NCBI RefSeq assembly: GCF_963676685.1
Contig: NC_092346.1
Span: 39,432,001 to 39,496,000 of the forward strand
Source of the DNA: Mytilus edulis
Lineage: Eukaryota
DNA: 64,000 nt
Reading direction: 5' to 3'
Shown here: piece by piece, positions 2,501-47,760 of the stretch
Position numbering within the stretch: position 1 is the first letter of the stretch
Layout of the letters: the number at the start of each line of letters is the position of its first letter
The notes under the pieces: model-generated
Told to the model about the DNA's origin: nothing
The model's input: the letters and a program-made list of their open reading frames with translations, nothing else
The model's database searches: none
Made by a program: the position numbers and the translations under genes

Positions 2501-4270
2501 TTACTTTCCAAAGCTATTTGGATCAAAGTTTGCAGAAGGAGCCTTGTCCGGATCGAAGGTGCCTGATCCCATACTATTTGGGGAGAATGATCCCGCTCCC
2601 ATGGAGCTTGGGTTGAAACTTCCGGATGGGACACTGTTCGGATTAAAACTTCCAGCTCCAAGACTACTTGGGTTGAAGGATCCAGCTCCTAATTTATTTG
2701 GGTCAAATGTTCCAGCTCCAGAGTTCGGGCTGAACTTACCAGCTGACATCTGATTAGGATTGAAACTTGCTGTGCCATTCGTATTGAACATGCTCAATGA
2801 TGCTAAAAAAGAAAAATAGTTCATTTCAGTACTATGGGTACCATATAAATTGCGCCACCTTATGACAACTGCGTTGCAAGTGATCGGTTTCGATTTTATC
2901 TTGAAAGAAATAAATATGCCACATCTACATGTAGTCAGAATATTTGCATTTCAATATTAGCTAGTAGGAACTGGCCGTCTCAAATTGAGTTTCCTGGCGA
3001 CAAGTAACTTCGTAAGGTGCAGAAGTTGTCGGATTATATATATCAAAAATATGTTCGTAAATCTTCAAATGAAATACCGTATCTCAATTATACACAACTG
3101 GTTTTCGTTTTCGTTTTTGTTTTCTTTGAATTTCATCTAAGGAACTACTGGTACATATATATTGATTTTAATAATTATCATTTCTTAATAATTTCTAATC
3201 TGATTAGATCAGACCATTTGCATTTGCAAATAGGTAAGGAAATTTAAAAAGGCAAATATACTAACTCCAATGGAATATAAGAAAACCGAAGTTGGGGAAA
3301 AAACAACTTTAAACGTTACACTAAATAGTAAAAATCACCAACAAAATAACGAACTCCAAGGTAAATCCATAAAGGGGGGAGTCCAAAAAAAGTCCCAAAC
3401 AAAATCAAACACTGACTTAATCAATCCACGAAACTAATGGAAATTAGCAGTCATATTTCTGACTTGGTACAGGCATTTTTTTTTTTAAAATAAAATGGTT
3501 GTTTAAACCTTGCTTGTAACTAGTTAAACTTCCCATTTGTATGACAGTTTATTGCTCCATTACATCGATTAAAGATTGTCAAAGTTCTATTTCGAGTCTA
3601 CTTGGAATTGGCTGTTGGGTGAAGTTTTATGCACATATTTCAGCTAATTTAAAATTTTCTTCCTTTTTATTTTCATTTTATAGAAGGAATAAAAACTTCG
3701 GTTGACTTAGATGAATGTAAAGAGCAACCGTTTCAGCAGTGTAAAGTAAGTAAGTAAGTAAATTATTGATTATAGTGACATGTGTACATTATGTATAGAT
3801 TATAAACATATAATATATGATAAATATTAATACACCCGGCCCAATGGAACTATAAGTCACCTCAAATAAAATAAAAGTGTACATGTTGATTTATGATAGG
3901 AATGTTCGGTTTGGAGGAATTTGAAATACTTGCATTTTGTTAATAAAGAGGAACGTTTTTATCAGAATATAATGGTACTTATCTATCAAATTTAAAACTA
4001 ATTGTGATGAAACTTGTAATTAAAAAAAACTGTCAATGCAAATAGCCTTTTACAAAAATTTAAAAGATTGACGAGATTGTATATATAACCGGAGAAATCA
4101 CCGAATCACCCTTGTGCCTATACATTCCAAAAAGTAAAAAACTTTTGAATTTTAACCCGCCAACATTTTTCGTTTGTTATATGTGTTCATAAAGTAAAGA
4201 AAGAAGAAAATAGATTCTTACCACAATAGCATGTAGGAATGAAAACTGTTAAAAATATTAACAAATTCAT
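2501..4270 (-). CDS. G1: secreted ~116-aa protein made of 10-aa GAGSF[DNS]Px repeats, ending NSFGK-stop
   Basis: Exon1 4270-4222 (MNLLIFLTVFIPTCYC, signal peptide, G|gtaag). Exon2 2802-2501 after a pyrimidine tract + ag, phase 1 in frame (ASLSMFNTNGTASFNPNQM...FDPNSFGK*). Nine F-[DNS]-P motifs; AATAAA overlaps the stop. Confidence 0.85.
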
Positions 4271-4591
4271 TTTAGCAAACTTGTGTCGTCGTTCTATTCC
4301 ACCTGCTGGTAGGATTGCCAGATAAGACAAAGAAATTATCATTAGGTCGCAGTCAAACACGTGGTCAACACTTTAAATTGTTTGTTATTTTTGTCTTTTA
4401 TCAGTCGTTATTTAAGATTATCTGAAACTGGGGGAATTTTTATATTTCATCTGATTAATGTCCAGCTTTTATTGGATAAATTCCTTATGGAAAGACAAAG
4501 GCGATAGTTTGTTTTAAATACGTATTGTAGAGGTACACATAGATGCATGTTTTGATCATGCCAGTCTCAAAGTACCCATCACTGAGACCTA

Positions 4592-4880
4592 CAAAAAGAG
4601 GGGCGAAAGATACCAGAGGAACAGTTAAACTCATAAATGGAAAATAAACTGACAACGCCATGGCTAAAAAAAACTGACACACACAAAAATAATAGTACAC
4701 AAGAAACAACATAAAAAACTAACGACTGAGCAACACGAACCCCACCAAAACTGGGCGTGATCTCAGGTGCTCAGAAAGTTAAGCAGATCCTGCTCCACAT
4801 GTGGCACCCGTCGTGTTGCTCATGTTTTTACAAACCCAGTAAATAGTCGATAGGTCACATTCATGAAAAGGGTAGGGGAA
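4592..4880. repeat. High-copy interspersed repeat (AAGAGGGRCGAAAGATACCA...GATCTCAGGTGCT family)
   Basis: Near-identical copies at 63715-64000 and 55818-55970, with partial copies at 23283-23370 and 49490-49655. Confidence 0.8.
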
Positions 4881-6670
4881 TGTAGTTACGATAACTTTCT
4901 ACGTTATGTGCCGATTCCTTAATCTTATTGAAATATATTGTAGGTGAAACAAGTTTTGCCAGACCTGCATAAATTCTGCCCCTTAGGTCCGACGATTAGT
5001 TGCATCTCTGCACTTGTCGCAGAAAAAAAATCCTATATAGACTTAGGGGTTGCCCATTTGATATTCTGGGGGGGGGGGGGGGCAGGAGGATTTTTTTTTG
5101 ACAGGTTATCTATTTTTGTAATCTAAGAGGACAAATTATTCATTTTCTGCACTATTGAAGCAAGATTTTTCATTTTCATTAAAGCAAGGGACTGATTATT
5201 CATTTTCACAACTGTATTTATGATATTCAAAACCATACAATTTTTAAATGATTTGTTTATCATAAACAACATATTTGTGTTTCCTTTGACATTTTTTTTT
5301 GTATGCCGAATGCTATAAATTTTATTTTGACATTTTTTTTTGTATGCTGAATTGATGTGCACGCTACTGCGTGTTGGCGTATAGGGAGCTACGCGCCTGA
5401 ATACAATTTAATTAAATATATTAAACAACTGGGAATCCTCCCCCTTTATAAGTAGAGACAATCCATAACCTACATCTCAGAAATATTAATCTTAAATTTA
5501 TATAAATGAAAAGTAAGCTTCCATAAATAAAATTCAACAATGTTTCTTAAAATTAGTAAAAGTGGTTTATAGTCATACCCCAACATGTTGACCATAGATA
5601 GACAAACAATTCACTTGCATTCGATTCGCATTTGAACTATATGTGTTTGTTAATGTAAACTGTTTCAAATGTGAATTAAACTAATTCAAATTAGGTGTGA
5701 ACTCAGTATGATTCTCAGGTAGTTTCAAACTGAAAGATACTTTTAAGGGAAGGGAAAGAAACAGATAAAATTATGTGTGTTACAAACACTGTTTATTCAA
5801 GTCAGAATCCTGGATCTCAATAGTACTTTGATAATGTCAAATAAAAACATGAATATGATAGTTACATACAATACTACATGTATTTATTACATATTAAATG
5901 ACATTTATTTTAGTGATTGGTAATTAGGAAAAATCTGTAATTCAGGTGTAAATTGAGACAAACAATATCACTGAATGCAGTTTCTAGTCAAGTGACCAGC
6001 AAACATGGAAATCTACCTTTTGAATGAAAGGAGAACTCTTACATTGAAAATGAATGATGTAAATCTAGATTCTAATAATAGCCGAAGGGAGCTCACATTC
6101 ACAACAGTTAAAGCATTGCTGAATTAGTGAACAAAGCATTTTTCTCATTAACTTGAAAATCCACCTATTAGAATGGATAAAACCCGAATTTTAAGACATA
6201 CATGTAAGGTCCGAGACCACAATTATTTCGTAGTGCATTTCTTTTAGAACATAAATGAAAATAAAAAAAATCCAACCTGTGCTTTCTGAAAGAAACTTTT
6301 ACAGTGTGTTGTACTACTCTTGGGAAAAATTATATCAAAATTATAGAAAACTTCATCGGATCTAACACAAACTATGAACAATTTTATGTTTAGGGCGTCT
6401 TGAAATCTTTTGACAGCTTCTGAAGTGCTAATTTTAAACCTTTTTCAGCTGGACCAAATCACTACTTTCCTTTAAAATTCTGGACTCAATTTTTTTACAG
6501 TGTAATATGACCCCCCCCCCCTCCCCCAGGGAAAACATGACCTAAAACCTCCTTCATATAAGACAAAAATACATGGGAACTCATACTGAATGGTCAAATG
6601 TGTTCAATACACCTTATTGCTTATAATTATCCCGGCTGACCCAGCCGCTTGAACTTTTGACACATACAAC

Positions 6671-7145
6671 TGTAGCGGGGTTGCTTCCCCTCAGTACAGG
6701 TAGAACATATAAAGCCAGTCTTAATCAACTGAGCTAGAGAATAGATTCTTTGGCTCAGTGGGTTAACGCACTGACTGTCATGCAGACAACCGGGGTCGAA
6801 TCCCAGTGGTGACAATATGAATTTGTAGAGTAGATACGTGCTCTCCGGTTACATTTGGCACCCGACTAAAAAATCCACAATGGTTATCTGGAGTATAGCC
6901 AGGGTTTGTGTTGTTAAGAGTCATATATGAAGATATGATGACTCTTGTGGTGGGGGAATAGTGTAGCAGGGTTGCTTCCCCTCAGTACAGGTAGAACATA
7001 TAAAGCCAGTCTTAATCAACTGAGCTAAAGAATTCATTCTTTGGCTCAGTGGGTTAACGCACTACCTGTCTCGCAGACGAACGAGGTTTGAATCCCGGTG
7101 GTGACGATATGAATTTGTAGAGTAGATACATGCTCTCCGGTTACA
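6671..7145 (+). mobile_element. Complete TRIM (non-autonomous LTR retrotransposon) with tRNA-derived Pol III promoter in both LTRs (Helenus-type)
   Basis: LTR1 6671-6853 and LTR2 6962-7145, both TG...CA. PBS TGGCACCCGA at 6856; purine-rich GGTGGGGGAATAG before LTR2; 4-bp TSD CAAC (6667-6670 and 7146-7149). A-box TGGCTCAGTGG and B-box GGGTCGAATCC / GGTTTGAATCC in each LTR. Confidence 0.9.
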
Positions 7146-7487
7146 CAACAATCACTTTTCCATTGTGGCGTCAGATATTTTGTTTTATGACGTCAAAATT
7201 TTATGGGAACCTGTGTGATATCCAGTAATGGCGGACAAATAGCGATAAGGTGTATATGAAAATTGCAGTTAAGATGGTAAAATCACAAATCAGCCATTAC
7301 TGTAAATGGACTAAAAGTATGACTTTTGAGCAAATTTAAAGGGAAATGACAGGGAAGGGGCAAAATAGTGTTCAAGGGGAGCAAATGCCCTTTAATTTGG
7401 TATGGAGGTTTCAAAAATAGAGGGAGAATTAGAGGGAAAGTTGAGTCATCTTTTTAGACTTCAGTTAAATAATGACTTATGAAGTTA

Positions 7488-7717
7488 GGGAGCTACCATT
7501 TTATTTTTATGGGGGGGGGGGGGGGGGGGGGCTAGGATGAAATTTGAAAAAAATAGGCAGGACCGGAGTTTTGAGTAAAAAAAAAAGTCAGGATAAACTA
7601 ATAAAAAAAAAAATGCAGGACCGAATAGAGTGAAAAATAATAAGGCAGGACAGATATTACAACTAAAAAAAAATGCAGGACAAATTTTTCATCCTAGCCC
7701 CCCCATAAAAATCAAAT
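7488..7717. mobile_element. Harbinger-like MITE (GGGAGCTACCATTT TIR), right end truncated
   Basis: Same family as the complete copy at 32201-32502; poly-G / poly-C subterminal inverted repeat. Confidence 0.7.
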
Positions 7718-8624
7718 TCTAATTCTAAAAAAAAACCCACACTTCTCAGAACTATGTCTAATTCACTTTGACTACTGATATGCAAACCTAAAAACAAACA
7801 GAAAAATATATCATAATATTATTTATAGTGATTGAAAGATTCATAACACTTTGAAAGGATAATTCACACGTGTTACACGGGGAGCATGTTTGTTTACAAA
7901 TAATAATGTCACGTGATCGCGCAGACCTCACATGTTGCATCGCCCTTACAATCCACTAATACATAACCAATTATCATGCAAACATGCAACGTGAATGTGA
8001 TTGGTTATCAAATAATACAGAAATAATGCATGTACAGTTTATGAAGAAATTAGTTCATCAAATAGATGCGATTTTCACTTTTGACACGAACAGGTCGGGT
8101 TGACATTTCTGTCATCGGGGATAATATTGAGATAAATTGGATAAAACTGACCGTCAAAAAGGTCTAGAGAAGCACATCAGTAGAACCTTAACATTAATAA
8201 GTAAAACTTACCAAAATTTCTCTAATTAATAAACTATATAACTGAAATTTCACAAAGATAACGGTAAATAATTTTGATGATGGTGATGATGGTGGTTAAA
8301 TTGGCGCGAAATAATATTCTTACTCCTATTGCTTTACGTACAAAAAATGTATAGAATTGAATTTGACTACAGTTGAGCATAAAAAACGTGAATATGCAAA
8401 AGCCTGGTAATATATTAATGATAAAGTTTGTATAAATTTCCGTAAACGAATTTACCCGTATACTTCACTAAGAATTACATTTGAGCGCAAGGAGATCTTT
8501 ATCATGTTTATTTGTGAATCGGTTTATATAACCCCGGTTGAACTCAGGGTCGTATTAACGGAATTTTTTGCGTTGCTTTTAAATCATTGAGGCCATCTAT
8601 TTTTATTACGGGTTTCCACATCTT

Positions 8625-9012
8625 TAAATCGGAATTATAGAAAAAATGGAATGTTGTTAGCAGAATCAAAACAGAAATGATGAACACTGCAACATTTTCA
8701 GCAAAACATAAATAGGATGGAGGATCTGTGTATTCACATTATTTGTAAAACTCTCCTTATTCCTGTGAAGCGTGTGCTTTACATCGAGGCTTTCTATGCT
8801 TATCATCGACGCCACAGTACTTCAACCAATTAGACAACGTTTATTTGGGGCATTCGACCTATTTTAACTCAGATTTTGGAATTTTTTAATCGAAATTATA
8901 GAAAAATGGAATGTTGTTAGTACATATAAAATAGAAAAAGATGAATACTATTAGCTAAAGCAAGTTTAGATGGGGTTCTGTGTATTTACATTGTTTGTAC
9001 AACTCTCCTTAC
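8625..9012. repeat. Local diverged direct repeat (~130 bp x2)
   Basis: AATTATAGAAAAA(A)TGGAATGTTGTTAG...AACTCTCCTTA occurs at ~8625-8762 and ~8887-9012. Confidence 0.65.
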
Positions 9013-10103
9013 TGATGCCATATTTTGGAATTTCCGTGACCTAAATGGTTCGCGAAAATTAATATTTTTATATATAGTATAGTAAATAAATATGCCTGTC
9101 CTGACAAAAAAAAAAACTTCCAAAAATATATACACGTGTCGTACCTATCGTGTGGTCAGTTTCCCACCGAAACGGTCATTCAGTACGACAGCGCCAAAGC
9201 GATCGGTCCTCTTTTGAATACTTGGTGAATTTTAATTTATTCAATTAGTCCCCCTTTTTTAATTATTTATAAGATATATATGATTGATAGGACTGGAGTG
9301 TTGTTTTTCTTTTTGGTATTATATTGTGTGAAGTATACAGTTGTGTTTAATATATATATACATATGCGTTTATGAATGTTCATCTGTACCATATTTAATA
9401 AACATAGCAGTGGCGTTGTCGTGTAGCTTTGCACTTTAATTATGAGTTTTGTATTCTTTATACTTTCACAGTATAAAAGGTTTTTCAAAGGCACACATTA
9501 TCATGGGGTGACGTACATGAGACTAGTATTATGTATTGAGGTTAATACAGAATGAAGGTTGTTACAAGAGAATTTATTTCTTAGTTAAAAAGGGGGGGGG
9601 GGGGAACTGAACTCCGACAACATTCAAAAAAGGAAAGTCCTTAATCAAATTTCAAAATCAAAAGTTCAAACACATCAAACGAATGGATAACAACTGCCAT
9701 ATATTCCTGACTTGGTATAGTCTTTTTTTTATGTAGAAAATGGTAAAATGGTGAAAATGGTGAGATATACCTGGTTTTAAAGCTAGCAAAATCTCAAACT
9801 TGTACAACAGTCACATACAATTCCATTATATTGACAACATGTGTAAACTATAAAAAAAAATAAAAAAATATATCAACAAAGAAATCCAAAAAGGCATATA
9901 GACAAAACACAATAGCTAAAATGAAAGACAAGAACACAAAAATGTATTATAGCACTATAAAGGCAACAGCAGTATACAACTGTTCAGAAGTTATGTATCA
10001 GTTGAGGGAGAAGAAATCCGGCTTACAAACTAAAACAGAGAGAAAAACAATAACTATAAGAGGAAAACAACAAAACCAAAACCTCTGAAGTGAGAAAAAA
10101 AAC

Positions 10104-10137
<34 letters not shown>

Positions 10138-10685
10138 AAATGCAAAATACAAGGAAAAGAATTATTAGATAATAACTACCCTTTTCCTGACTTAGTACAG
10201 GACATGACGGGATGTGTAAATACCGAGCCACGTTAAATGGATATTACCAAAAATAAACTAAACGGTAAAAGTATTCACAAAAACAATTAAAGAATACTTT
10301 AACACGTTATTTAAAAGATGATAAGTAACATCAGTACCTATAATTTAAATTTCAAGACCATCGTGTTAAAAATGTGAAGTTGGTACGGAATATTTATCAT
10401 CAAGGTCTTCCGATGTTGTTTTTTAAAAGAGGGTGAGACGTTCTTTGACATACTCCTTGTTCATAAACTTTCTGCTCAGCATGACACGTTGACGTGTTTG
10501 AAAGTCGCATGATAGTTTGATAAACCTGTGAAATGCCCACTCTGAGTCGGGTATTAAGTCATAATCGAGTTAGAAGCATGTATCAAATTAATACTTCTTA
10601 ATACTGATTAAATAATTATTTCGATGCATTCTGACAAAATTAAACAATCTTAAATGTAAATGTAACAACAATGATTTTAATTGAT

Positions 10686-11572
10686 TTATTTTCCAAAACT
10701 ATTAAGCTTGTTTGGATCAAAGGTACCACTTCCAGTACCGCCATTAAGTTTATTCGGGTCAAAGGTACCAGTTCCACTTCCACCACTACCAAAACCAGTT
10801 CCAGAACCGAAACCTCCAGTTCCACTTCCACTTCCTCCAAATCCAGTTCCGCTTCCGAAGTTGTTTACTTTATTAGGATCAAATGTTTCAGTTGTCCCAG
10901 ATGGAGCAACAGTCGATGCGGCAAATGTGGTCATGGAGCCTGCAAATGTTGACATGGAGCCGAATCCACTGCCTCCAAAGTTCTGGTTCAAAGCGTTTGG
11001 ATTAAAACTACCCCCTGCGCCTGTTCCAAATCCACCACTTCCGGCCGCGAAACCACCAGTACCAAAGTCCTTGTTTAGAGCGTTCGGGTCAAATGTCCCA
11101 TCTAAAAAGGAACATATTTATACATTTAATGATAAACTTTCTCAAAATCTTTTTCACATACCATATTAGACAACCTATGTTGAAGTATTCTCATCTTAAA
11201 GTCTCAAAGTAGGAATATCAGGCCATAAGTTCATATCATATATAATCATTCCAAATAAATTTTTGACAGGTAAAAAATATGATAATGAGTCAATTATCTT
11301 TTGCTCCGTTGCACTAAAGTATATAATATACCTTGAATATTATTACTTGAATTTCAAATTTTAAATTGAAGACATTTATATCAAGTGTATAGTTACACAT
11401 GGATTTGATTAATGACATAATGTTGTAGAAACCCAAGGCTAGTATTTTCACGAAAATTTAATTCTATTCAATCTTTGACTTCTTTTCATCATATAAATTT
11501 GATATGCTTACCAGATAGTGGAGCCGACAGACATGCCGGTAAGAGACAAAGAAGAGCTAACCAACCCTTCAT
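10686..11572 (-). CDS. G2: secreted ~158-aa Gly/Phe/Ser-rich FDPN-repeat protein, ending NSFGK-stop
   Basis: Exon1 11572-11512 (MKGWLALLCLLPACLSAPLS, G|gtaag). Exon2 11101-10686, phase 1 (DGTFDPNALNKDFGTGG...TFDPNKLNSFGK*). Five F[DN]PN motifs, FG-rich linkers and a central Thr-rich stretch. Confidence 0.88.
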
Positions 11573-18775: not shown

Positions 18776-21700
18776 ATGACAGTTTTTACCATCTTTGTTG
18801 GAATTCTAGTATCGGGTATGTATTTTAGTGTTGTTTTTTTTAACACAGGATAATTTTGAGAAAACCATTTTTGTGTTTTCGTGAATTACTTAAACTTTCA
18901 TTTATATTGGTGAATAATTATTCATAAAAACACAAAACTTTTTACCACTCTAAGGCTATATTGAAAAACACTGGTTTACGACAATCGTTAAGATCTATAT
19001 TTTGTAAATGTATTATTTTTCCGAGAGAACACATGGGGATACTCGCCGAACGAGCTTTGAAACCTCTCCCCTTGCAAAAGTGTTTGCTGGAATTCTGCTG
19101 GATATATCGAATCCGCAATCCTGATATTCCCACTAGCATCATTCGTTAAAAAAAAAACTCATTAAGGAACAATGCCGAAATTTTTACGCAATGTGGTTTG
19201 ATTGCCAAAAGGACAACTACACAACAGAGTTCAAATAAAGCGTATTAAATCAACTATAGACTCAAACAGTGATCCTAACCCATACCTTGTAGTCAGGTTT
19301 CCGACATGACAAAACATGAAACATTTTAATCGAAAAAAAACTCAATGGTCTGATTCACGTCGACTCAATTCGAAAAACAAATATTACATACAGCAACCAA
19401 CGACAACCACTGTATAACTTTCTATATATTCTAATTTGCTGTCGAAATTGATTTTCATCTTGTGTCCGATCCTACCCTTTTTATGCTTATTTGATATCAT
19501 CAATTTCAAGTAAATCGTATTGTTCTTTTAAGTTACTGGAGCGTTCCTAGTAATTCTAAGAAGTGAAAACAGTAAGTTAACATGTCGGCAACTCAATGAT
19601 TGTAACTAGAAAAGAATCTAGATAGAAAAAAAAACGTACTATGTTAAAATACTACATTTAAATGTATTTCACCGAATACAACTAATTATCTTTGCAGGAT
19701 GTTATAGTTTTTCACTACCAGGTCTGCAAAATGTCCAGACAGATGATAATTTCACAAAAACTTTTGGAATTATACCAGGAAAAAGCACATACAAAAAGAC
19801 AGATCCAAATCATTCAATCAACACAGAACAACTTGGGGAACATGTACTCTCATCCCAGGAAAAAGTTTCCACTTCCGTCTCAAATCACGGTAGTCTTGCA
19901 ACAACGCTGAATCAACTATCTGGTATGTCTGCACTTCAGTTGCTGAAAATTCTAGGAGTACAACTTGGAAGTAATGCGCCTCTCAACATCAATACAAACG
20001 CCATCATCCATCGCCTGCCACAGCAACAAAACAATGTTCCAAAGAAGCAACATTATACGGTAGAACCATTGAAACCAACAATGAAAACACTTTCAAACTA
20101 TGGACAAAAAACTGGAAGTTTTATGCCTACTGATAACAACGTCTTAAGTACACCCCGCCCACCACAGCAAATGAGCAATGCTGGAAAGTTCAATACTCAG
20201 CAACAATTGAGTCCAGTTTTCATGATGACGTCAGGAATGGGTGAACAAAGCTTCCCTGATACGTCTTCAATTCAACATCCATCTGGTTCTAATCATGAAG
20301 ATAATAAAGCAAAATTGTTTGACCCTGATGCACTGATGCAAGAAATGATGAGCTCTTCTTCTTCATCACTAGGTGCTGGGAAATATATGGTAAAACAGAA
20401 TGTTTCTCCACAAAATTGGGCACCTAATCAACAGAAAAATATTAAAACGAATACCAAAAACAGTCCTGGCATGTTTAATCCTATGCATGGTCAAACATCT
20501 ATCAACTTCAACCCTGATTCATTCAACAACATAAAAATGAATTTTCAACCAGATGCACTCTTGCTTTCTGTTAATAAAGGGACACCGCATATTAGTAACA
20601 AACTTTCATATGATCCTGATAAACTTAACAACTACTATGGAAAGTTTAAACCTGGACAAATGTTCCAAGTTGAAGATATGAATACACCGCTACCACCAGT
20701 ACATCAAAGTTTATTCAATGCCGACACTTTAAACAAAAAGTTGATGAGCAGTGCCAAAAAGTCAGATGACCCAAATCCGAACAATGAAAACACATTAGCT
20801 TCATTGCAGTCCGAAATTGTCCCGCAACCGTCATTGAAGAAAATGTCAGGTTTTGTGCCTGGCTTACTTTTTCCTGGGTTTAAACCTGATAATGACGAGC
20901 TTGGGAATCACTTTTCGGAATATGACACAAACTTTGTAGAAAGAGCAGAGGAAAGTAAAAAAAGTATCAAGCATAGATATGCCTTTGTAGATATGTTATC
21001 AGATTTACCAGCAGAGCCTGACCATTCAGTTAACCCGGGAAACCTTACAAATCAAACTGCACTTGCACCAACTAGCCAATCACAGACAACCATTACAGCC
21101 ACTATGGATACTACAACTCAAGGGACTACTTTTGTGTTCACAACTTCAACTGATAGCCATGAAAACCATAGTGAATCCAGTAAATTTATGCCTGCTCAGT
21201 CAAACCACCCTCAAAATGGATTTGTTCCTGGGTCTTTGACAGGAGATGGGCGAACATTACAAATGATGGTAAATAAAGGAATGTATAACCCTAACGTGGT
21301 CAATCAGCAGGCTTTCTCAATGAATAATATTCAAAATACAGGATCATCAAATATCAACAATAACACAACGCATCAGACGTCGAATAGTTTTGGAATGATG
21401 TTTAATTTTAATCCTTCATCAGGTAACCAACCAAAAATCAGTTTCAACACTAATCAGCAAATAGGAATGGATGGTTCAAGTGGGTCGACGTCAAACAACT
21501 ACAATACATTTTATGATCCAAATAAAATAAATCAAAATTCATATATTAACCCATTCGACAAGGCCCAGACGAACATGAATAACATGTCAACAGGGCAGTT
21601 TGATAATTCACAATTCTTAGGAAATTTTGACGCAAACAAGGTTAATATGGGGATTATTGGAAATTCAAAAAATAGTACGCAAAATAGTATGAATTCTGGG

Positions 21701-22300
21701 TTTGGTGGACAATTTAACCCAACAGAAGTAAATAAAGCATATTTTAATCCAAATGTGGTAAATAAAGAGAGAATTAACTTTAACCCTTCTAAAATGTTGG
21801 AATCTAATGCTGGCTATGACAAGAAAACAGCCGAAAGTTATACATTTGATCCGAATAAAGTCAATGACTTACATGTCAATTTTCTTCCTCCTTTTCTTCA
21901 AGACAATTCAAACTCAACTGCAGGAAACAGTTCAGGTTCTGGATTTATCCCGGGTCTTCTGTCTGGAGGTAAAGATGATAGTGGTGTATTTGATCCTAGT
22001 AAAATGAAGGCTGGCATGTTGTTTAATCCAAACGCAATGATGAATACGAACAAAAATACGACAGAAAATGGCGGCATCTCAGATAAAAGTCAAACGAATA
22101 TGATGTTTAGTCCTTCGGCTATGATCGGTAACATGAAGGGTTTGATATCGGGAGCAAGTTTTGATCCAAATGCAGTAAACAAAGTTAACATGCATTTCAG
22201 TCCTAATGAAATGATGAAACAAGTCCCTGGCAACGTTGAAAGGACATCCAAGACTGATAATCCTATAATTGGTCAAGGAAGCGATGAGAAAGTAAAATAA
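18776..22300 (+). CDS. G3: secreted ~880-aa Asn/Ser/Met/Gln/Phe-rich protein with many F[DN]P motifs
   Basis: Exon1 18776-18815 (MTVFTIFVGILVS, G|gtatgt). Exon2 19698-22300 is in frame with the 791-aa ORF and extends it 5' (GCYSFSLPGLQNVQ...). Signal peptide MTVFTIFVGILVSGCYS; repeated FDPNKVN / FNPNVVN / GF[VI]PG motifs; AATAAA overlaps the stop. Confidence 0.9.
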
Positions 22301-26416: not shown

Positions 26417-29110
26417 ATGGCGTGGACAACGGTGATATTGTCGACATTATTGGTCAGCCATGCATTCGCCATTAGTGGTAAGTTTATATTTTTGGAAGGA
26501 AATTTCATGCTGAACGTAAACAAAAGGGAAAACCCCAAAAGTCTTTAAACAAAATATTATTAAAAAAAGTTCATTGTTTCTATTAGATTTTTGTGACCAT
26601 TCCCTTACCTTTGAAATTAATTCAAATTTAATATGATTTCGCCTGTACATGACTTAAAAAAAAATCACATAGCTTCTTTGATTCACATCTATAAGTGAAG
26701 ATTCATCGTTATACATTTACATGAAGTCATAGTAGTATTTATTTGTTCAGTTCATTACTAAATAATGTTTTGCTATTCTAAATTTTAATTGTTCCAACTA
26801 ATTTAAGCCTTCCTTATTTCAATTAGAAATTTCGTTTTTTTTTTTTTTTATCAAAGTTTAGATCAAAATAGGCTCAAATGACAGATAAAAAACAGAAACG
26901 GACGGTTCGGATAAAAGAACATGGTTACGAAAATATGCCACAACATATTAAATCCATAATAATCGAATTAAAAAAATCGTAATAAAAAATTATTTATAAT
27001 GAGACTCAGTGAGATTACATGGTAAAAGCAGTTTGAAAATGCAAAAAACAAAACATATACGATATGTTGACGAATGACAAATGCGTTTTTAAACCGTTGG
27101 TTTTCCCGTTTGAATGGTTTTACACTAGTAATTTTGGGGCCCTTTATAGCTTTTTGTTCGGTTACAGCCAAGGCTCCGTCTTGAAGGCCGTACATGGACC
27201 TATAATGGTTTACTTTTATAAATTGTTAATTGGATGGATGGTTGTCTCATTGGCACTCACACCACATCTTCCCATATCTATTAAATAGCAAAATACAAAA
27301 AAATATAAAACATGTATAATACTAGACTAACTTTAACGATGGAAGTATTTTTTTTATTTTTATGCTTTAAATCATTATAATAGGTACGAAAAGACTTCCC
27401 GAAATCGCGTGATTTTTCGCTAGTTTATACAAGTTTTTTTTATTTTCACGGAAATTTGAATTAGAGTTAAAATGTCATGTCAGGTGGTAATCTTGCAAGT
27501 TCTAATTAAAGCTTTAAGTTTATGCCCTTCATTTTCATTGTGTACGTACTTTCAAAATGCCTAGACCTTACTAAAAAAACAACCTAGAAGGATACATTCT
27601 TTTTAACAGAAATGTTATCAATATTTTCATTTCTTTTCAGTGCGACAAGCAAACAGCACATCCGGGGGAACATCAGGTGGGGGTTCTGGAGGAGTGACTC
27701 AGACTGGTGGAGGTTCTGGTGGAGTGATACCAAGCAGTGGAGGTTCCGGTGGAGTTACCCAGAGCGGTGGAGGTTCCGGTGGAGTTACTCAGAGTGGAGG
27801 AAGTTCTGGTGGTACACCAGGAGGTTCCGGTGGTAGCTCCAGTGGATCAGCATCACAGAATATTCAACCTCCTCAGTTTTTGTTAAATCCATCACAGTTT
27901 CTTGGCGGCGGAAGTCAGCAAAGGTATTTAGATACCGAGATTTTCTTACCAAACACATGGGTCTGGCAATAGTGCATTTGATCAATAGAACATAATGACT
28001 TGCTATGTTGTCATATTTTCTCAAATAAAAATATAGTAGTCTAATATTTATGGTGCCACACGTGGAGCAGAATCTTCTTAACTTTCCGGAGCACAGGATA
28101 TCACCCCTACTATAAATGAGTTAGAATAACCCTTCGATGTCTTTCGACACTCAATTATAGAATTGAACGAACTGAATAAGAACTATCATTTATTATACTG
28201 TTGTATTTCAGTTCTAGCGGAGGAGGGTCTAACAGCAGTGGTAGTGGTTCCAGTAGTAGTTCTGGTGGCGGTAGCAGCAGTGGCGGTGCCCAAATTCCAA
28301 ATTTTGATCCAAACAAAGTCAACCAAATACAAGCCAGTTTTCTAGATCCATCAAAACTGCAGCTAGGATCAGGCGGAGGAGGGGGCAGTGGTTTTAACCC
28401 CGACCAGATCAACAGCATGTTATTTAATTTCCTGAACCCTAGTCAAATGACAGCAGGGAGGCGTATGTATTCCATCTTTATTTATGTTTTTGTAAATTTT
28501 AATCCAAAAAAATAACCCAATTACACATCTAATTCCTGATTCAATATTATACGATAGCTGTAATGCGCAATTTACTGTATTATTTAATTTTTATTAAACA
28601 GGTAGACGACAGACAAGTCAAAGTAGTTCCGGCGGAAGTAGTGGTGCTAGTTCCGGCGCAAGTAGTGGTGCTAGTTCCGGCGGAAGTAGCGGTGGAAGTT
28701 CAAGCAGTGGAAGTCAGCCACCAAACTTCGACCCTAATAAGGTAAACCAGATACAATCCAGTATGTTAGATCCTTCCAAGTCACAGCTGGGTTCTGGTGG
28801 CGGTGGCGGAGCTATGTTTAACCCAGACCAGTTCAACACAATGAAGTTTAATTTCTTTAACCCAAAAGCACAAACTAGTGGCGGAGGTGGTAGCAGCGGT
28901 AGCAGTAGTGGAGGAAGCCAGCCACCAAAATTCGACGCAAATAAAGTTAACCAATTACAAGCCAACATGTTGGACCCATCCTCATCAAAATTGGGTCAAA
29001 GTGGGGGAAGCGCCGGTGGATTTGATCCAGATCAATTCAACTCCAAAACATTCAACTTCTTTAATCCACAAAACCAATTAGGAAAGAGAGGTATTATGTC
29101 ATTTATATAA
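26417..29110 (+). CDS. G4: secreted ~367-aa precursor with Gly/Ser spacers and three ~54-aa FDPNKVNQ modules; G-RRRR-Q and G-KR processing sites
   Basis: Exon1 26417-26477 (MAWTTVILSTLLVSHAFAIS, G|gtaagt); exon2 27641-27923 (VRQANST..., phase 2 end); exon3 28212-28462; exon4 28602-29110 (...NQLGKRGIMSFI*, AATAAA at 29113). All junctions GT-AG and in frame. Confidence 0.88.
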
Positions 29111-35917: not shown

Positions 35918-38900
35918 ATGTACACACCGAAGCCAGTGTGTTGGTGGTATGTTGTAATGGTATCATTGATTTTATTACTCAGAAATGGTATGTTGAAAAT
36001 GGGGAAATTATGACCACTTCGTATGCAATATACCTTAGTTTTGAGTAGAAATTAATGATCATTGGGTACTTTTAGTATTTCTAATTCTGAGTTTAATATA
36101 CTGATTGAAAGACACGTTTGATATACCAGTAAATAAAATTGAGGTGTTTTAATAGTGTTTTTGTATGTAATATTATCATTCAAAAAACATTACAGATGTT
36201 TTGATATATTGCGTTTCAAACGCTTTAAAAAACTTCTAAACTAACATGTATGCTGAATATTAGAAAAGTAAGAAAAACGATATAACAGTCAGAAACAACC
36301 ATTATAAGCACAGATCACAAGCTTATTTTGCTAGAGGAGTCTAAAAACTTGTTTTATTGTTTTAATATTATCAAACCATACAGAAGTCGGTTCATGATGG
36401 CTATTACTGTACAGTCACGCAGTGAAGTACGATTGAAATATTACATTAATATTTTTGTTTTCAATTGTCATACAGGAATGATTGCGATTTGTGTGAACTT
36501 ACGTTAAAATTAGACCATTCATAATAATAGGATATAGTTTAGTAACGATCAAGGTCAACTAGATCACTATCCTTATCTTATACTGATAAAATAATTCTAT
36601 TTACCCTTATTTAGGACTAAATATATTTATCATGGCATCGTTAAATACAATATTTACATTTTTGTGTATGGTCAGTTTGACCAAAACCCGAAATGGTGAG
36701 TCTGAATTTGTCACCTTCAACAATTTCGCGATGAAATTCTAGACAAAAATCTTATTTTACGTATTTATAATTTATGTAAATTGGTTATTGAGAAAACAAG
36801 TGTCACGGATGATATACCAAGGCAAACCACTGTTCAACTCCCAAACACTCTTTAATATGCATAATCAAATCTCTAAATGGTGGGCTTTGATTACGTGAGC
36901 AAAATGCATATCAATCTAATATTTATAACCTTTCAGATCACGTTTTAAATAAATATAGTCAATATTTATATTTTTTTTATGAAAAAGAGAAGGGAGATAT
37001 CAAACAATTGCAATCTATACCATAAGTCCACCTAACACAATACATAAAACTAAACACCTAAAAAATTCTATTAAAGCACGAAGAATAGGAGGATAATACT
37101 AAGGGAACATTCATAAGATGGAAATAAACAAACCGACAATGCCATGGCAATACATGAAGAAAAAACGACGAATATCCGACAAATCAACAAATAGAAATAG
37201 ACATAAAAACAAAGATGTGGTATGATTGCCAATGAGACAACTCTCCACAAGAAACCAAAAATGACACAGAAATTAACAACCATAGGTCACCGTACGGCCT
37301 TCAACAATGAGCAAAGCTCATACCGCATAGGCAGCTATAAAAGGCCCCGAAATGACAATGTTAAACAATCCGAGAAAACTAACGGCCTTATTTATGTAAA
37401 GTCTACGCAACACGAACTCACTAAAATGAACTCAGAACATAGATGTCCCGGAACGTATGCGAAACTTTAATAATCAAGAATGCTTAAGTTGCATCTCGTA
37501 ATGTCAAATCAACACAAAAGCTCCTAGGTTAAATATATTTTATATTTTATATCTAAATTTACTTATTTCTAGATAGTATTTATTCAATGTTGCTGGATCA
37601 TCTTATATTATTTTTCAATACAATTTTTACAGTCCGACAAAGTTTTAATCCTAATTCAATGATGGGAAGTTTTCTTGGTGGATCATCGTCCTCGTCTTCT
37701 TTGTATGGAAGCTTCAACCCTAATAAAATGATGTCACAATATACAGGCGGGGGTTCTAGTGGAAGCATGTTTAACCCTAATGCCGCGATTGGAGGAGGTC
37801 AACAGCCACAGCAACCTGCAAACAGTGGTCAAAGTTCACAGCAGAGTCAGTCATCCCAATCTACAAATAGTCCTCCACAATCAGGAGGAAGTCAGTCATC
37901 TGGAACTGGAACGTTTGACCCGAATGCTCAGATGTCATCGGGTAGTTCCGGTGGCACCTCTGGTGGAAGTCAATTTGGAGGCATGTCTAAGTCATCAGGG
38001 GGATCCGGTGGCACCTCTAGTGGAAGTCAATTTGGAGGCATGTCTCAGTCATCAGGAGGATCCGGTGGCACCTCTAGTGGAAGTCAATTTGGAGGTATGT
38101 CTCAGTCATCAGGTGGCTCTAGCGGAAGTATGTTTAATCCGAATGCCATGATAGGTGGTCAGCAACAACCAATGAACAGTGGGCAAAAATCACAACAGAG
38201 TCAATCTTCCCAGTCGACAAATAGTCCTGCACAATCAAGTCAGTCATTTGGAACTGGTATGTTTAACCCAAATGCGCAGATGTCATCGGGTGGATCTGGC
38301 GGAACTTCTGGTGGCGGTGGAATGTCGTTCAATCCGAATCAGATGACGTCTGGTGGTTCACAACAAATGAGTGGAGGCGGTGGTGGTGGTGGTGGTAGTA
38401 GCAGTTCAAACACAAATCCAAAGTACGACCCGAACAATGCTGTAAATACTGGTGCCAAGTATGACCCTAATGCTGCAAACAGTGGAATGAGTGGTTCTTC
38501 TGGTGGAGCAAAACCATCTTTTGCCAACGGAATGGGGTTTAATGCAAAACAACAAACGCCTGGTGGGCAACAGACTACGATTCAACCAAGCCAAAAATCC
38601 GGATCACAATCCGCGTCTAGTTTTGGTCAAGCATCTGGTCAGCAACAACAATCGGCAGCATCAAGCTTTGGACAAGCTTCAGGTCAACCATCACAGTCTT
38701 CAGCATCAAGTTTTGGTCAAGCTTCGGGTCAACAGTCGGGTTCTGGAAGTCAACAGCCTCAATCTGGCTCCGGTAGTCAACAGCCTCAACCTGGCTCCGG
38801 TAGTCAGCAGCCTCAATCAAATTGTGGACAGCAAGGCTCTTTTGATCCAGTAGCAGCCAATACAGGAGGAACTTCTGGTTTTAATCCTCTTAACCCACTT

Positions 38901-41900
38901 TTAGGTATGATTGATGTCAATAAGCTAATAATTATGCAAATTAGACAACTAATGGTTTCGGTAAAACTATAACTGACAAGATAAATCAAATTAAAAAAAA
39001 AATTATGCAAACTTTTCCATAAATACTTAGATATTTAATTTCTGACAAAAAGTAAAATAACATAAATACTGAACTCAAAACGGAAAGTTCGTCATCGAAT
39101 GGCAAAATCAAATGCTAAACACACCAAAGAATCGAACACAAATGTCTTTTCCTGACTTCGTACAGGCATTCTCAAATGTAGAAAATTGTGGATTGAACCT
39201 GGTTTATAGTGCTAAACCTCTCACTTGTAAAGGAATTTTTGTATTTCAACATACTTAGCTGTAATTACATGCTGTAACGCAAATGTATTTTATGAACGTT
39301 AACTTTCAGTTGAGAAAATATAAATGAATAAATATTTTTTCCTTAACATTTTTTTTCCTTTACATATATCTAATACATGATGCACACTTAGGCTTGTTTA
39401 GTTGATTTTCTTATATTTTATAGGAGGAAATACTATGAGTAAAATCATGGGACCGAAAACAGGATGTGGTAAATATATACAATAACATTATCTGATAAAT
39501 ACAGACTGCATGGTTCATCTGATTTCGACAGTATCTAATCGTATTTAATAGATGACCAAATTCATTCAAAATATCAGTTTTTGGAGGATAAAAAATTGTC
39601 TGACTGGGAAGCCAATTTTCTCAGAATTTCATAGCACGGCCATTTTAAAAATTGGTCTTTATCAAATAGGTTTCGTGTTTAGGTTTACCCAAGATTGGTA
39701 ATACAGATACCGTCAGAATTATCACTATTGTTGTTACTAGATTTGATATATAAAAAGTAAAATCACAAAAATACTGAACTTAGAGGAAAATCAAATCGGA
39801 AAGTCCATAATCACATGGCAAAATCAAATAACAAAACGCATCAAAAACGAATGGACAAGAACTGTCATATTCCTGACTTGGTACAGGCATTTTCAAATGT
39901 AGAAAATGGTGGATTAAACATGGTTTTATAGGGTTAATTCTCTCACTTTGATGACAGTCTCATCAAATTCCGTTATATTTACATTGATGCGTTAACTAAA
40001 CAGACACAATAAATAAAATGGTCAAAAGATGGGTACATCAGTCATCATAAATGTTACAGGTAAAAGTAATGGTGGCTTTGATCCTGGCTCCGTCAATATG
40101 CAACAAGCCAAGCTAGGAACCAGCTTAAACATGTTTGGCGGCGCTAAAGGAGGAGACCCAAGTAAAATGGATGCAAGTTCGTTAATGGGTGGATCCTCTG
40201 GAATGACGAGTGGAGCTAATTCAGTGATGACTCCAGGTGGAAGCAGTGGTGGGAGCACTGGGGCCAGTAGTGGAGGGGGAATGAATTTGAATCCAATGAA
40301 TATGATGAGCAGTATGACGGGAGGATCCGGAAGCGGAAGTGGGAGTGGTACGAATCCCATGAACGCAATTATGGGAGGAACATCTGCTACATCCAGAGGC
40401 GGAAGTAAGAGTTGATTTCTTAATATTCTAAAGGTTACAACTAAAAAAAGGAAATTTTTAAATGAATGTGTTTGCTTAATTTTCGCTCAATGCTTTGCGC
40501 TTTGGATTTTTCGGTATATTTTTATATGGTTGAATGATTATAAAATGCTTCATGCAGCTTGGTGTTGTAATAAGTCTTATAAAATATGCCTTGGCATTAT
40601 CTTTTCAATATTCAAATCTTTTATGCAGATATATTCCTTACTTGTTTTTGGTGCACATTAATAGTAAAAGAAAATGAAAAAAACAAACAAACAAAAAACA
40701 AAAAAACATCATAAACAGCAAAATAAGTAAACAGAGAATATAAAAAATAAAAGATAATGCCCCCTAAGTCATATGTTATAGGACTAGCTTGTTTTGTGGT
40801 TTGCAAACGCTTCTTTTAAAACTTTTCGACACTATTTATTATAGACAGTGGCTCTACAAGTCAAAGCGGAGGACAGACGGGTGGTAATCCGTTGGATCCT
40901 TTAGGGGCGATGATGGGTAGGTAGAACACTAATCTATATCAGCCGGTATCTGGCATATCAAATTGCAAAATATCAAATTGTCAGTTTGTATATAGGTTTT
41001 TGGTAAAATTGAATACGAGCAACATTAACATCAAATGTATACCATGGTGCAGTTGCCAGATAAAATTTAGTTTACTTATCTCTTTGTTTCAAAATAAATT
41101 TAAAGACCTAAATTCAAGTAATCTGTCAAAATATTGTCGTGTTAACAATTTTATGCATTTTTATGCATTTTTAATGCATTTTTATACTTATATATATTAT
41201 TTTCTAACTTATCTGTAACCTTTGTACTTGCATGGTTTTATGAGAATAAACTATCTATCTAACATTTGAACCACTTTATTTGAAAAAAAACCAACGTATT
41301 TTCGATTTTTTTAAAAGCTCTACCATGCCTCTCCACCTATTAACCAATTAACCATACGTTTTGTTGCAGCCCTGAACTTTTGAAACTTTCTATTTATCAA
41401 ATGACAGCTGTTATAGCAGATCATTGAAGTTTTATTTTCATTGAAATTTATAATTCTGTTTTATTTTCAATTCACCTTTACGCTTTATGACACTGGTTTT
41501 TTTTTGTATTTATTTTCATAGCACGAGGCTTGTTACGTATTAGATTCAACATCTTTTATTTTGTTTTATCTGATTGCATTTCTTTTGTAACAGGAGGTGC
41601 CCAGAGGTTTGCAGGAGGGAGTAATCTGATGGACCCCATGGGTTTTATGAATGGTAACTTAATGAAGATTGGCTTCACTCTGCTTGATTTTTTATAAATC
41701 TAAAATATATGCAAATTTGTTTACCCAAAAAAATATGATTCAAAGTCTTGTTTTGTTATAATTTCAGATCATTTATATTAAAGTATCACATATGTATACA
41801 TGTACTTGAAAGTTTACTATTAAACGTTTGCTGCATTGATACAAAACTATACCTTTGGCGCAATATCGTAAAAAAATTAGACCCTGCTTGCCTTGTTTGC

Positions 41901-43935
41901 CCCCAAAACTGATCTAAAACATATAAAACATCGGTTTGGTAAACAGTTTGAAAACCATGTGAGAAGACAATCTTTTGAAAATTTGAAGCAATCCTAAATC
42001 AGAGAAACAATTTATTGCTGTTCCTAATATACATATTTCTGATTGGTTTATGACAAAATCATATCGGATTATTTTCAAAAATACGTAAGCACACATCCAA
42101 CACAATTTTGTCCAACAAGTTATTCTTCATGCAACACCTGACATAGATTTAATTTTTAATCAATGAATGTTCTGTGTATTTCAGGAGGCGGACAAACTGG
42201 TAAATTTGGAAACCGGTTTTCCGTGCCGTTAACAGGTACGTACAATTTAACAATATCTGTTTACCATAGTTAAAATGTAAAAGATACAACATACTAAATA
42301 ATTGCATCGATAGATATAATATAATAATTAATTTTATAAATTATAACTTTAAACATGAAGAAGACGAAGTTTTATGGATTGCAAAAAAATACGGTTGCAC
42401 AATGAATATGCCACAACAATTGGAAATAAAAATTATTTTTATAAAACTGATAATTTTCAAGATACAAGATATCTCTATCTCGTTTTGCAGACGTTAACTT
42501 ATCAATATCGGGTTGATACTATATCGCCAGTGACGTAGCTCAGACAGGTGCAACTCGAATCCCAAGATGTCAACCAAGTTAATATTTTGTGTATATTTTG
42601 TTATTGCAGGAAGATCTTTGCAGACAGAAACGGGTAAGTAATCTTGTTTTATTCAAACATTTACAAATATATAGATTAAAAAAATTAAGAGTCTGCAGAT
42701 ACCAAGAGCCAATCAAAATCCATAAGTCGAAGTAAAACAGACGCACGGCTTAACGTTAAAACGACGTTAAAAAGAAAATACATAACAAATTGACTTAAAT
42801 AGATTTGGATCGTTTTTATAAAATGTTAACAAAATTAAAAAAAAATTAATTTAAATGTAATTATTAAGAATGGAAAAGGGGAATGAACCACATAATTTAC
42901 AGGATAATTTCATTTGACACATAACAGTTTGGCAAACACTAATTAGGATTATTGAGAAACTTGTTTTTGCCTTAGGTGTATTTAACCTTTTAAAACATAC
43001 TACAGCCCACACAACACATGACAGACGTATTTGATTAAATTGAAAATAAACTCGTCATAGATACAAGTATTAAAATTCTATATTTGCGCAAGATGCGCTT
43101 TTCGTCTACTAAATACTCATCATTAAAAAGTCAATTACAGTTCGAAGTTGAAGAGCATCGAGAACTAAAGTTTCCTTAACATTTGCCAAATACAGCTAAG
43201 TTAATCCATTCCTGAGTTAAAAAAGCATTTATATTTCAAAAATTCGAAATTTCGTAAACAGTTAATTCATAACTATGACCATATCAATGACAATTCATTT
43301 CAACACATGAATGCTGACTACTGGGCTGGTGATACCCTCGGGGAATAAAAAATCTCCACCAGTAGTGGCTTCGACCCAGTGGTTGTAAATAAACTCATCA
43401 AAGATACTGGGATCAAAATTTATATTTGCGCCAAACGCGCGTTTCGTCTTCAAAAGAATCACCAGTGACACTCGAATAAAAAAATGTAAAAAAACCAAAT
43501 AAAATACGAAGTTGAAAAGCATTGAGGACCAAAATTCCTCCAAGTTTTGCAAAATACAACTAAGGTTATTCATTCATGAGTTAGAAAAGCCTTAGTATTT
43601 CAAAAATTCTAAGTTTTGTAAACAGTTAATTTTATTATAACCATACCAATGACAATTAATGTCTACACAGGAGTGCTGACTACTGGGCTGGTGAACCCCA
43701 CGGGGAATCAGTTGATAAACCGACTTTGAATATCAATAAGAAAATACTGCTATACAAGAAGATAAATATAGACTAAATTTGCATTATGTGATAAACTGCA
43801 AATTTATAAATAGAATACCTTTAATAGAATATCTGAAACAATAAAAGTCAACAATCACCATTACCATTACTTTTCTTTCTAGGGAAGGGTAGTTCCCTGA
43901 TGTTGGCTAGAATTTTACAACACTCAGCACCGTAA
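35918..43935 (+). CDS. G5: secreted ~663-aa Gly/Ser/Gln/Met-rich FNPN-repeat protein with a micro-exon tail
   Basis: Candidate exon1 35918-35987 (MYTPKPVCWWYVVMVSLILLLRN, G|gtatgt). Further exons 37633-38904, 39424-39468, 40060-40404, 40845-40916, 41594-41653, 42185-42235, 42610-42633 and 43883-43935 (...LARILQHSAP*, AATAAA at 43959). All introns GT-AG and phase 1. Confidence 0.82.
43044..43710 (-). mobile_element. Tandem ~343-bp retrozyme-like repeat (about 2 units) with degenerate hammerhead cores, inside the last intron of G5
   Basis: AAATAAACTC recurs at 43044 and 43387. Each unit has the HHR-like GTTTCGTC...TCA(T/C)CAG segment; the second copy reads CUGGUGA...GAAACGCGCGUU on the minus strand. 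Confidence 0.75.
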
Positions 43936-46899: not shown

Positions 46900-47760
46900 G
46901 TAGTACCATGTATGACTACCTCTCGCTGCTAACACTGCTATGCATATCTACGGCATGGATGTAATCAATGTTCTAACGTTATTGCGTGGAATTGCTCGCC
47001 ATTCCTGTTGCAACATTTGTCGGAGCTGATCAAGGGCATTGCATTGTTCTGCTGTAATAACTACCTCTTTTGGTCAGGTTAGGTTGGAAAATTTCGTCTC
47101 TGTACCTTTGAGCCGATAAATTACCCTGAACATGTATCATTTCCGTTTTATATATAGAGATTAGAGATAGCCATCCACATCATGACACCTCCTCCACTGA
47201 GGCTGTCCAAATCTTGGATACACGAAAGAGGAAATGGTTCAAACATGTGCCAGTAGTCACGAGTTCTGCTTTCACGTTTCAGAATCATATTAAAGAAATC
47301 ATTACTGAACAATACTCCGTGCCAGTTGCCCTGTCCCTTGATATGTTGCACCATTATACTCTGTTCCCTCTGTGTAACGGCCTCAAAACTGGTTCAAAAT
47401 GTGACCTCCTGCGTCCAATGTCATGCTGTCGCAGTCGATTGCGAACTGTTTGTGAGCTGATTCTTCAATCCTGGTATCCTTACTGCAGTGGCTGTTTCGG
47501 CAACGGTTCAATTCCATAGATGAAATACCCGAAATTATTGATTTTTTCTTGTAGTCGTTTGGCGAGGTCGTCCACACCTCGGGTGGTCATTGGTACAGCC
47601 AGTCTGTTGATATCTGTTCCAACGTCACATAATTGTGCTCTAGTTAGCTTTTTCAGCTCTGGCTTCTTCACGTTCGGACACTCCGGCTCTACCTTGACAT
47701 TGCAGCGTTTTAACGTTGTGATGAGTTACTCGGGTTTTATATGCATAAAAGTGTAACAAA
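46900..47760 (-). pseudogene. Tc1/mariner (Tc1-type) transposase relic
   Basis: Minus-strand fragments RISSQTVRNRLRQHDIGRRR..PVLRPLHR, WHGVLFSND..GGGVMMW and LDQLRQMLQQEWRAIPRNNVRTLITSMP*ICIAVLAARGSHTWY match Tc1 N-terminal, DDE and C-terminal signatures; broken by stops and frameshifts. Confidence 0.85.

Follow-up and report, generated by a model that had tools for sequence, protein, structure and literature searches.

Two Mytilus edulis genes for small, probably secreted Phe-Asx-Pro-Asn repeat proteins share a C-terminus that is conserved among bivalves and predicted to be amidated

The window analysed here, a 64-kb stretch of the Mytilus edulis genome (contig NC_092346.1, positions 39,432,001 to 39,496,000), is AT-rich (GC content of approximately 26% to 46% per kb) and contains a cluster of related genes, 2 of which, G1 and G2, encode small Gly/Ser-rich proteins with the repeat motif F[DNS]PN in common and the same last 5 residues. 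Both genes lie on the minus strand and consist of 2 exons, at 2501-4270 (G1) and 10686-11572 (G2), which join in frame, in G1 with no internal stop, to give predicted products of 116 and 158 aa, respectively. Their first exons were sought by scanning for an ATG, a hydrophobic stretch and a donor, which yielded one convincing candidate per gene; both introns are in phase 1, with acceptors at 2802 in G1 and 11101 in G2. The signal exon of G2 aligns with oyster signal peptides, being identical to that of P0003 at 9 of 14 positions, a score that none of 5,000 shuffles reached. The same comparison gave no significant match for the signal exon of G1 (314 of 5,000 shuffles scored equally high), and the assignment of this exon is a prediction. 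The idea of a single gene with 2 alternative ends was rejected, given that G1 and G2 each have their own signal exon. Exon 2 of G1 carries one N-glycosylation sequon. An exon-like stretch on the plus strand within the G1 intron (3684-3745), with a good acceptor and donor, reads like a degenerate EGF start.

Both frames end in NSFGK-stop (...FDPNSFGK in G1 and ...KLNSFGK in G2), as stated in the original prediction, whose span of 2501-11101 covers both stops but omits the signal-peptide exon of G2 at 11512-11572. A degenerate DNA pattern for this ending matches 2 sites in the 64 kb, namely those of G1 and G2, with 0.05 expected, and none of 100 shuffles gave 2; the chance of 5 identical residues is about 3 × 10−5 under the pooled composition. 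Across 86 aa, the last exons of the 2 genes are 35% identical. Two of the 5 NSFGK codons differ synonymously (Ser AGC/AGT and Lys AAG/AAA) and the 3′ flanks have only AT-rich sequence in common, which fits conservation at the protein level rather than recent copying. Judging from these comparisons, the shared ending is a product of common ancestry and selection, the genes being paralogs, and the identity of all 5 residues appears to be partly coincidental, as relatives differ in the residues preceding the Phe and in tail length. In the alignment, the terminal Asn of G2 occupies a repeat position different from that of the G1 Asn. It is probable that one basic residue was lost in each gene, because P0007, a relative of G1 with 72% identity across the whole of exon 2, ends in SAFGKK, and relatives of G2 end in FG[KR][KR]. 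In G1, with its stop at 2501-2503, the end reads AAG TAA TAA, which, set beside the FGKK of P0007, suggests that a mutation turned the second Lys codon into a stop and created a GT by accident. The terminal Gly of G1 falls on the Gly position of the decapeptide register; it is given by the repeat anyway, and Lys is the special residue of this terminus.

The GT overlaps the Lys and stop codons of G1, and the sequence before window position 1 was unseen, both of which leave room for the view that the genes splice on past these stops, which would then not be real ends, and that their common ending arises artificially from reading genomic DNA. Splicing through this AA|gtaat donor had been named at the outset as a possible refutation, and it appears unlikely: the site lacks the G at both −1 and +5, as does none of the 15 predicted donors in the cluster. 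Furthermore, the 4 acceptors found downstream open only 11 to 18 codons, G2 has no GT at that site, and the named models from oyster (RefSeq), pearl oyster and zebra mussel stop at this motif too, making continued splicing a highly improbable explanation.

Homologs were sought with the individual exons and a profile, giving 23 distinct hits, 10 of which have a visible C-terminus. The terminus count excluded 10 N-terminal exon fragments that read into introns (P0010 and P0012-P0020), the unrelated repeat proteins P0039 and P0040, P0042, and P0022, a near duplicate of P0003, and included the cluster member P0024, giving 11 relatives and, with G1 and G2, 13 sequences. Conservation of an FGK-type end in orthologs, suggested in the original prediction as a check, was found in 10 of the 11 relatives, which end in F-G followed by 2 or 3 basic residues (KK, RK, RR or KRR), whereas the eleventh, P0041, has an apparent end at bare F-G. 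Thus, 12 of the 13 sequences end in F-G-[KR]1-3 and the thirteenth in F-G. By comparison, of 243 internal Gly residues only 3 stand before K/R, and K/R account for 19 of 1,091 internal residues, with none in the mature regions of the oyster proteins. The relatives with the F-G-basic end include sequences from Crassostrea virginica, Magallana gigas, 2 Saccostrea, Pinctada imbricata and Dreissena polymorpha, and homologs of exon 2 of G2 occur in all 5 of these genera; every named homolog is bivalve. The homologs XP_022329287 (C. virginica), XP_011413369 (M. gigas), XP_061174655 (S. echinata), FSP39_001387 (P. imbricata), and DPMN_087701 and DPMN_177200 (D. polymorpha, the zebra mussel) are built, like G1 and G2, of F[DN]PN repeats and spacers of Gly/Phe, end in F-G-(G)-basic and, where the N-terminus of the model is intact, begin with a signal peptide, but have 2 terminal basic residues rather than one; the decapeptide array of G1 is more regular than theirs. 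For the zebra mussel, we used the supplement of PMC9210306, of which 56 of the 173 rows of the foot-specific list and 28 of the 339 rows of the gill table were considered; there, DPMN_177200 has a SignalP call at 1-16 and the C-terminus FDPNSFGGKK.

The names under which homologs are filed in databases (keratin-like, hnRNP A1 or GPCR) are automatic labels without Pfam support and mislabel the family. A keratin or hnRNP A1 identity was rejected, given that P0002, P0003 and P0005 match no Pfam family and contain neither an intermediate-filament rod nor an RRM. Pfam gave no family above the cut-off in 9 repeat proteins or exons (P0001 had 3 sub-cutoff repeat hits), NCBIfam gave none in 7 of 7 sequences, a PDB sequence search gave one chance match (E 0.59), and the best value in the ESM Atlas was 0.80, for P0003, with no usable match for an exon of the neighbouring gene G5. 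No description of the family was found in the open-access literature, although a proteomics listing may exist beyond it, in subscription journals, in figures or in supplements (those of bioRxiv and most of those in PMC). The string FDPN does not occur in the portions considered of the supplements of the Mytilisepta atlas (PMC5549309), the main table of which holds annotations and expression rather than sequences. The family is apparently undescribed, its conserved terminal feature is real, and its amidation is probably real as well.

The basic tail varies in number, accepts either basic residue and always follows Gly. In secretory pathways, a carboxypeptidase trims C-terminal Lys and Arg and PAM turns the exposed Gly into an amide. 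The tail matches what these 2 enzymes require, which makes amidation likely, and we consider it probable, on sequence grounds, that the G1 and G2 products are trimmed and amidated to Phe-amide. Consistently, orthogroup listings for oyster and zebra mussel include CPE-like and PAM-like members, and CPE/PAM processing has been invoked for the myticalins of Mytilus in the part of PMC5577615 considered. The RR and KRR tails of P0005 and P0021 point to a trimming signal rather than a Lys-specific function. Two Lys-based functions were discarded: an endoplasmic reticulum retrieval di-lysine, the proteins being soluble and an Arg-Arg variant existing, and a Lys cross-linking tail, for the latter of these reasons. 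A further alternative is that the tail stays on the product, whole or merely trimmed, and acts as a charged handle or a sorting or assembly switch on a structural protein. The repeat register would then explain the Gly, and basic C-terminal stretches are present in Gly-rich shematrin-like proteins among the mantle rows considered in PMC9210306. However, the tail directly follows Gly in every case, comprises only 1 to 3 residues that may be K or R, and is apparently absent in P0041, which seems to stop at the Gly, and we regard this alternative as improbable. Amidation itself is less unusual outside neuropeptides, toxins and antimicrobial peptides than had been claimed: of the 22 other secreted zebra-mussel proteins whose ends are visible in the foot rows, 4 end in G-[KR], which argues against strong novelty, and such ends seem to be fairly common on secreted bivalve proteins.

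Processing would begin with signal cleavage, followed by Lys removal by a CPE/CPD-type enzyme and conversion of Gly to the amide, presumably during passage through regulated granules, and would yield single acidic polypeptides of approximately 98 (G1) and 140 (G2) residues ending in Phe-amide. More tentatively, the N-termini would also be blocked, by Ala-Pro in G2 and the oyster proteins and by conversion of Gln to pyroglutamate in the zebra-mussel members and in the neighbouring genes G4 and G5. With blocked N-termini and a C-terminal amide, both ends would resist exopeptidases. The last exons of G1 and G2 encode no Cys, Tyr or Trp; the predicted mature chains contain 4 and 7 D+E and 3 and 4 K+R, respectively, with predicted isoelectric points (pI) of 4.58 and 4.27, and the Gly content is 14% in G1 and 28% in G2. 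Their calculated intact masses are about 9.74 and 13.25 kDa if the signal is cut after residue 16, and G1 may be N-glycosylated.

The amidation signal, the predicted pyroglutamate N-termini and prohormone-like sites in G4 could also belong to neuropeptide or gut-hormone precursors, in which the active part would be a C-terminal FDPN[SA]F-amide, released whole or by monobasic cleavage. FDPN[SA]F precedes the Gly in G1, the oysters and the pearl oyster, and the low level of DPMN_177200 in the rows considered of PMC9210306 (66.8) could reflect scattered neurons or endocrine cells. Indeed, G1 and G2 share a signal peptide and terminal X-Gly-basic sequence with amidated neuropeptide precursors processed by CPE and PAM, pyroglutamate being predicted in their relatives and convertase sites in G4. 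Yet none of the 13 sequences, including the full G1 and G2 models, has an internal basic pair, and internal K/R are entirely absent from oyster members. Unlike in multi-copy neuropeptide precursors, the repeats lack dibasic separators and a single product of approximately 100 to 140 aa would result. Furthermore, the residues preceding the Phe vary (KLNSF in G2, NSTLF in P0005 and NTMSF in P0021), leaving only the Phe in common, DPMN_177200 would yield a Gly-amide, and FDPN, FNPN and FGKK are absent from the part considered of one supplement of an oyster ganglion study (PMC8398477), a weak negative that covers text and not figures. Precursors of this kind are thus unlikely. Of the original suggestion that the products are bioactive or end-protected, the second half fits better, the first, in a neuropeptide or antimicrobial sense, being disfavoured by the absence of internal dibasic sites, the acidity and the variable pre-Phe residues.

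A size of approximately 10 to 13 kDa, the high Gly content of G2 and the predicted amide are also reminiscent of chelicerate acanthoscurrins, ctenidins and serrulin, described in the portion considered of PMC6784228 as Gly-rich peptides of approximately 10 kDa with a C-terminal amide. G1 and G2 might accordingly be amidated Gly-rich defence polypeptides, antimicrobial or microbe-aggregating, for which a mucosal location would fit. The chelicerate peptides, compared here by description and not by alignment, are cationic and haemocyte-derived, whereas mature G1 and G2 are acidic. In addition, the long stretches conserved between G5 and a zebra-mussel protein are unlike hypervariable mussel antimicrobial peptides such as myticalins, and a defence role appears more doubtful than either a retained basic tail or a hormone precursor. 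Myticalins, as far as the part of PMC5577615 considered describes them, resemble G1 and G2 as linear secreted mussel peptides with predicted CPE trimming and PAM amidation, but are hypervariable, 23 to 42 aa long and of pI >11, and are freed from an anionic propeptide at Lys-Arg; G1 and G2 have no dibasic site, no propeptide and an acidic core. Shematrin-like proteins are likewise secreted, Gly-rich and of low complexity, but in the mantle rows considered of PMC9210306 they are basic, built of G(n)Y repeats and mantle-specific, whereas G1 and G2 are acidic with no Tyr in the last exons, and the paralog DPMN_177200 has a mantle value of 0 in that source. By sequence, G1 and G2 would work like an amidated secretory precursor, but each of these 4 classes (neuropeptide precursors, Gly-rich antimicrobial peptides, myticalins and shematrins) has defining features that they fail to display.

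Hints of the tissue come from 2 zebra-mussel paralogs. DPMN_177200 is listed as foot-specific in the rows considered of PMC9210306 (foot 66.8, gill 6.4 and mantle 0). Oocyte, meiosis and digestive-type genes occur in the same rows, and because of these the foot samples probably included visceral mass. "Foot-specific" in that list therefore calls for caution; several small secreted proteins there end in Gly-Lys or Gly-Arg. A 10:1 foot:gill ratio in common with digestive-type genes was discounted as forced by the sorting on tau. CLCA is a marker of mucous cells. Chitotriosidase marks the digestive gland in Mytilisepta, according to the part of PMC5549309 considered. In the gill rows considered of PMC9210306, the G5 ortholog DPMN_161919 falls together with CLCA and a GH18-CBM14 chitinase (log fold change, logFC, of −5.6/−3.8, −5.2/−4.4 and −5.0/−4.5, respectively, at 5.9 to 6.0 log counts per million), and only 4 of the 28 rows have logFC.Moderate ≤ −4.8, namely these 3 and an apolipophorin-like gene. 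The joint fall of CLCA and chitinase hints at carry-over of gut epithelium in the gill samples. Together, these indirect data exclude mantle expression for DPMN_177200 and hint at gut or visceral epithelium for the other paralog.

Our preferred explanation is that G1 and G2 belong to a family of amidated, end-capped polypeptides that resist proteases and act as matrix or mucus components in gut-type epithelium; weighed as a whole against the alternatives, we give it about an even chance. Its physical core, in which a disordered chain blocked at both ends and bearing Phe-Asx-Pro-Asn stickers forms a gel or a coating on a luminal surface as part of matrix or mucus, is slightly more tentative. 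In keeping with disorder, AlphaFold gave no confident fold for G1 or G2 (mean predicted local distance difference test, pLDDT, of 50.6 and 55.6; predicted template modelling score of 0.15 to 0.16). Several points count against the explanation. Low pLDDT may stem from the shallowness of the alignments, which had 3 and 6 rows. Six of the 11 relatives are oyster sequences, reducing the independent lineages to approximately 6 to 8, and Gly is the commonest residue in G2-type proteins, with F-G recurring within repeats, so that the Gly alone proves little. The predicted end of the neighbouring gene G3 has no amidation signal, although this is a predicted model with an uncertain 3′ end. The tissue hint concerns 2 zebra-mussel paralogs rather than DPMN_087701, the closest relative of G2, or G1 and G2 themselves; gonad or true foot expression is possible. 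In the rows considered, the gill shifts of the DPMN_161919 group have a false discovery rate of 0.46, and the ordering of the tables, one by tau and the other by logFC.High, makes adjacent rows alike partly by construction.

If the explanation of an end-capped matrix family is correct, the substrates of PAM would extend to non-neural, probably structural secretions. The pteriomorph/heterodont split among bivalves is Palaeozoic. What is new is the substrate, an acidic, low-complexity secreted family that keeps its amidation signal across both groups and would be missed by mining for neuropeptides or antimicrobial peptides that requires dibasic repeats or positive charge. A broader proposal, which we consider speculative and rather unlikely, is that an undescribed, ancient bivalve cluster uses the whole set of neuropeptide processing steps (convertase cuts, pyroglutamate and C-terminal amides) to make end-capped Phe-Asx-Pro-Asn sticker polypeptides that self-assemble into an extracellular substance within the gut lumen, for example a gel of mucus or the matrix of the style or gastric shield; amidation would then contribute to building a biomaterial and not to signalling.

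Table. Predicted exons and termini of G1 and G2, and neighbouring related genes, in window coordinates
Feature	Positions	Strand	Description
G1 exon 1	4222..4270	-	ATG followed by 16 hydrophobic codons (predicted signal peptide); donor GTG|gtaagaat in phase 1
G1 exon 2	2501..2802	-	nine decapeptide repeats in register, built around F[DNS]P[NSD]; C-terminal FDPNSFGK-stop
G1 terminal NSFGK-stop	2501..2518	-	predicted amidation signal; second TAA, then AATAAA, directly 3′
G2 exon 1	11512..11572	-	predicted signal peptide, then Ala-Pro; phase-1 donor CTG|gtaagcat
G2 exon 2	10686..11101	-	five F[DN]PN motifs in Gly/Ser/Thr/Phe-rich spacers; C-terminal KLNSFGK-stop
G2 terminal NSFGK-stop	10686..10703	-	predicted amidation signal; stop at 10686-10688
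G3	18776..22300	+	related FxPxx-hydrophobic repeat gene, predicted 880 aa, 14 F/Y-[DNS]-P-[NDS] motifs
G4	26417..29090	+	related gene, signal exon plus three exons rich in Gly/Ser; putative sites for convertase and amidation
G5	36632..42633	+	related multi-exon gene, at least 644 aa, may continue downstream; ortholog of DPMN_161919

Besides G1 and G2, the window contains at least 3 larger paralogs, plus-strand genes in which the motif is also present (Table), and convertase, pyroglutamate and amidation signals, all of them predictions, recur across the family. In G4, a Gly and 4 Arg followed by Gln span the third junction, and Gly-Lys-Arg ends exon 4; a search for a further exon downstream of 29090 found none. 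The layout of G4 is prohormone-like, with a duplicated module (FDPNKVNQ, LDPS and FNPDQ motifs) and Gly plus basic residues after each copy. An alpha-2-macroglobulin-like FLPNTW near 27950 was rejected as intronic, lying past the donor at 27923. G5 has RxxR followed by Gln after its signal peptide and shares long near-identical stretches with zebra-mussel DPMN_161919 in the part considered of the PMC9210306 supplement; this conservation appears strong, which is unusual for low-complexity sequence. In its low-complexity exon, a 22-residue identical stretch with 2 YDPN motifs and an FNPLNP motif are common to the 2 proteins. Small exons on the plus strand at 49842-55330 encode Trp-rich repeats (TWDGSWP twice and KSWAGAWKQE-type 3 times) and include one FDPN exon; they may continue G5 via a 24-base exon at 42610-42633 or belong to a separate gene starting at 42567. 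G3 consists of a single exon of approximately 2.6 kb in which Asn, Met, Ser and Gln are abundant; it has approximately 20 FxPxx-hydrophobic motifs and no Pfam match.

Elsewhere in the window, 2 similar copies of approximately 170 bases, seen by eye at 6660-7140, look like what we take to be a tRNA-derived short interspersed element. GC-richer open frames at 47130-47840 and 60656-61102 have no Pfam match and resemble remnants of mobile elements. At 61765-63050, the minus strand carries a gene with a C1q domain (PF00386 in Pfam, E 1e-22), the candidate signal exon of which spans 62978-63050.

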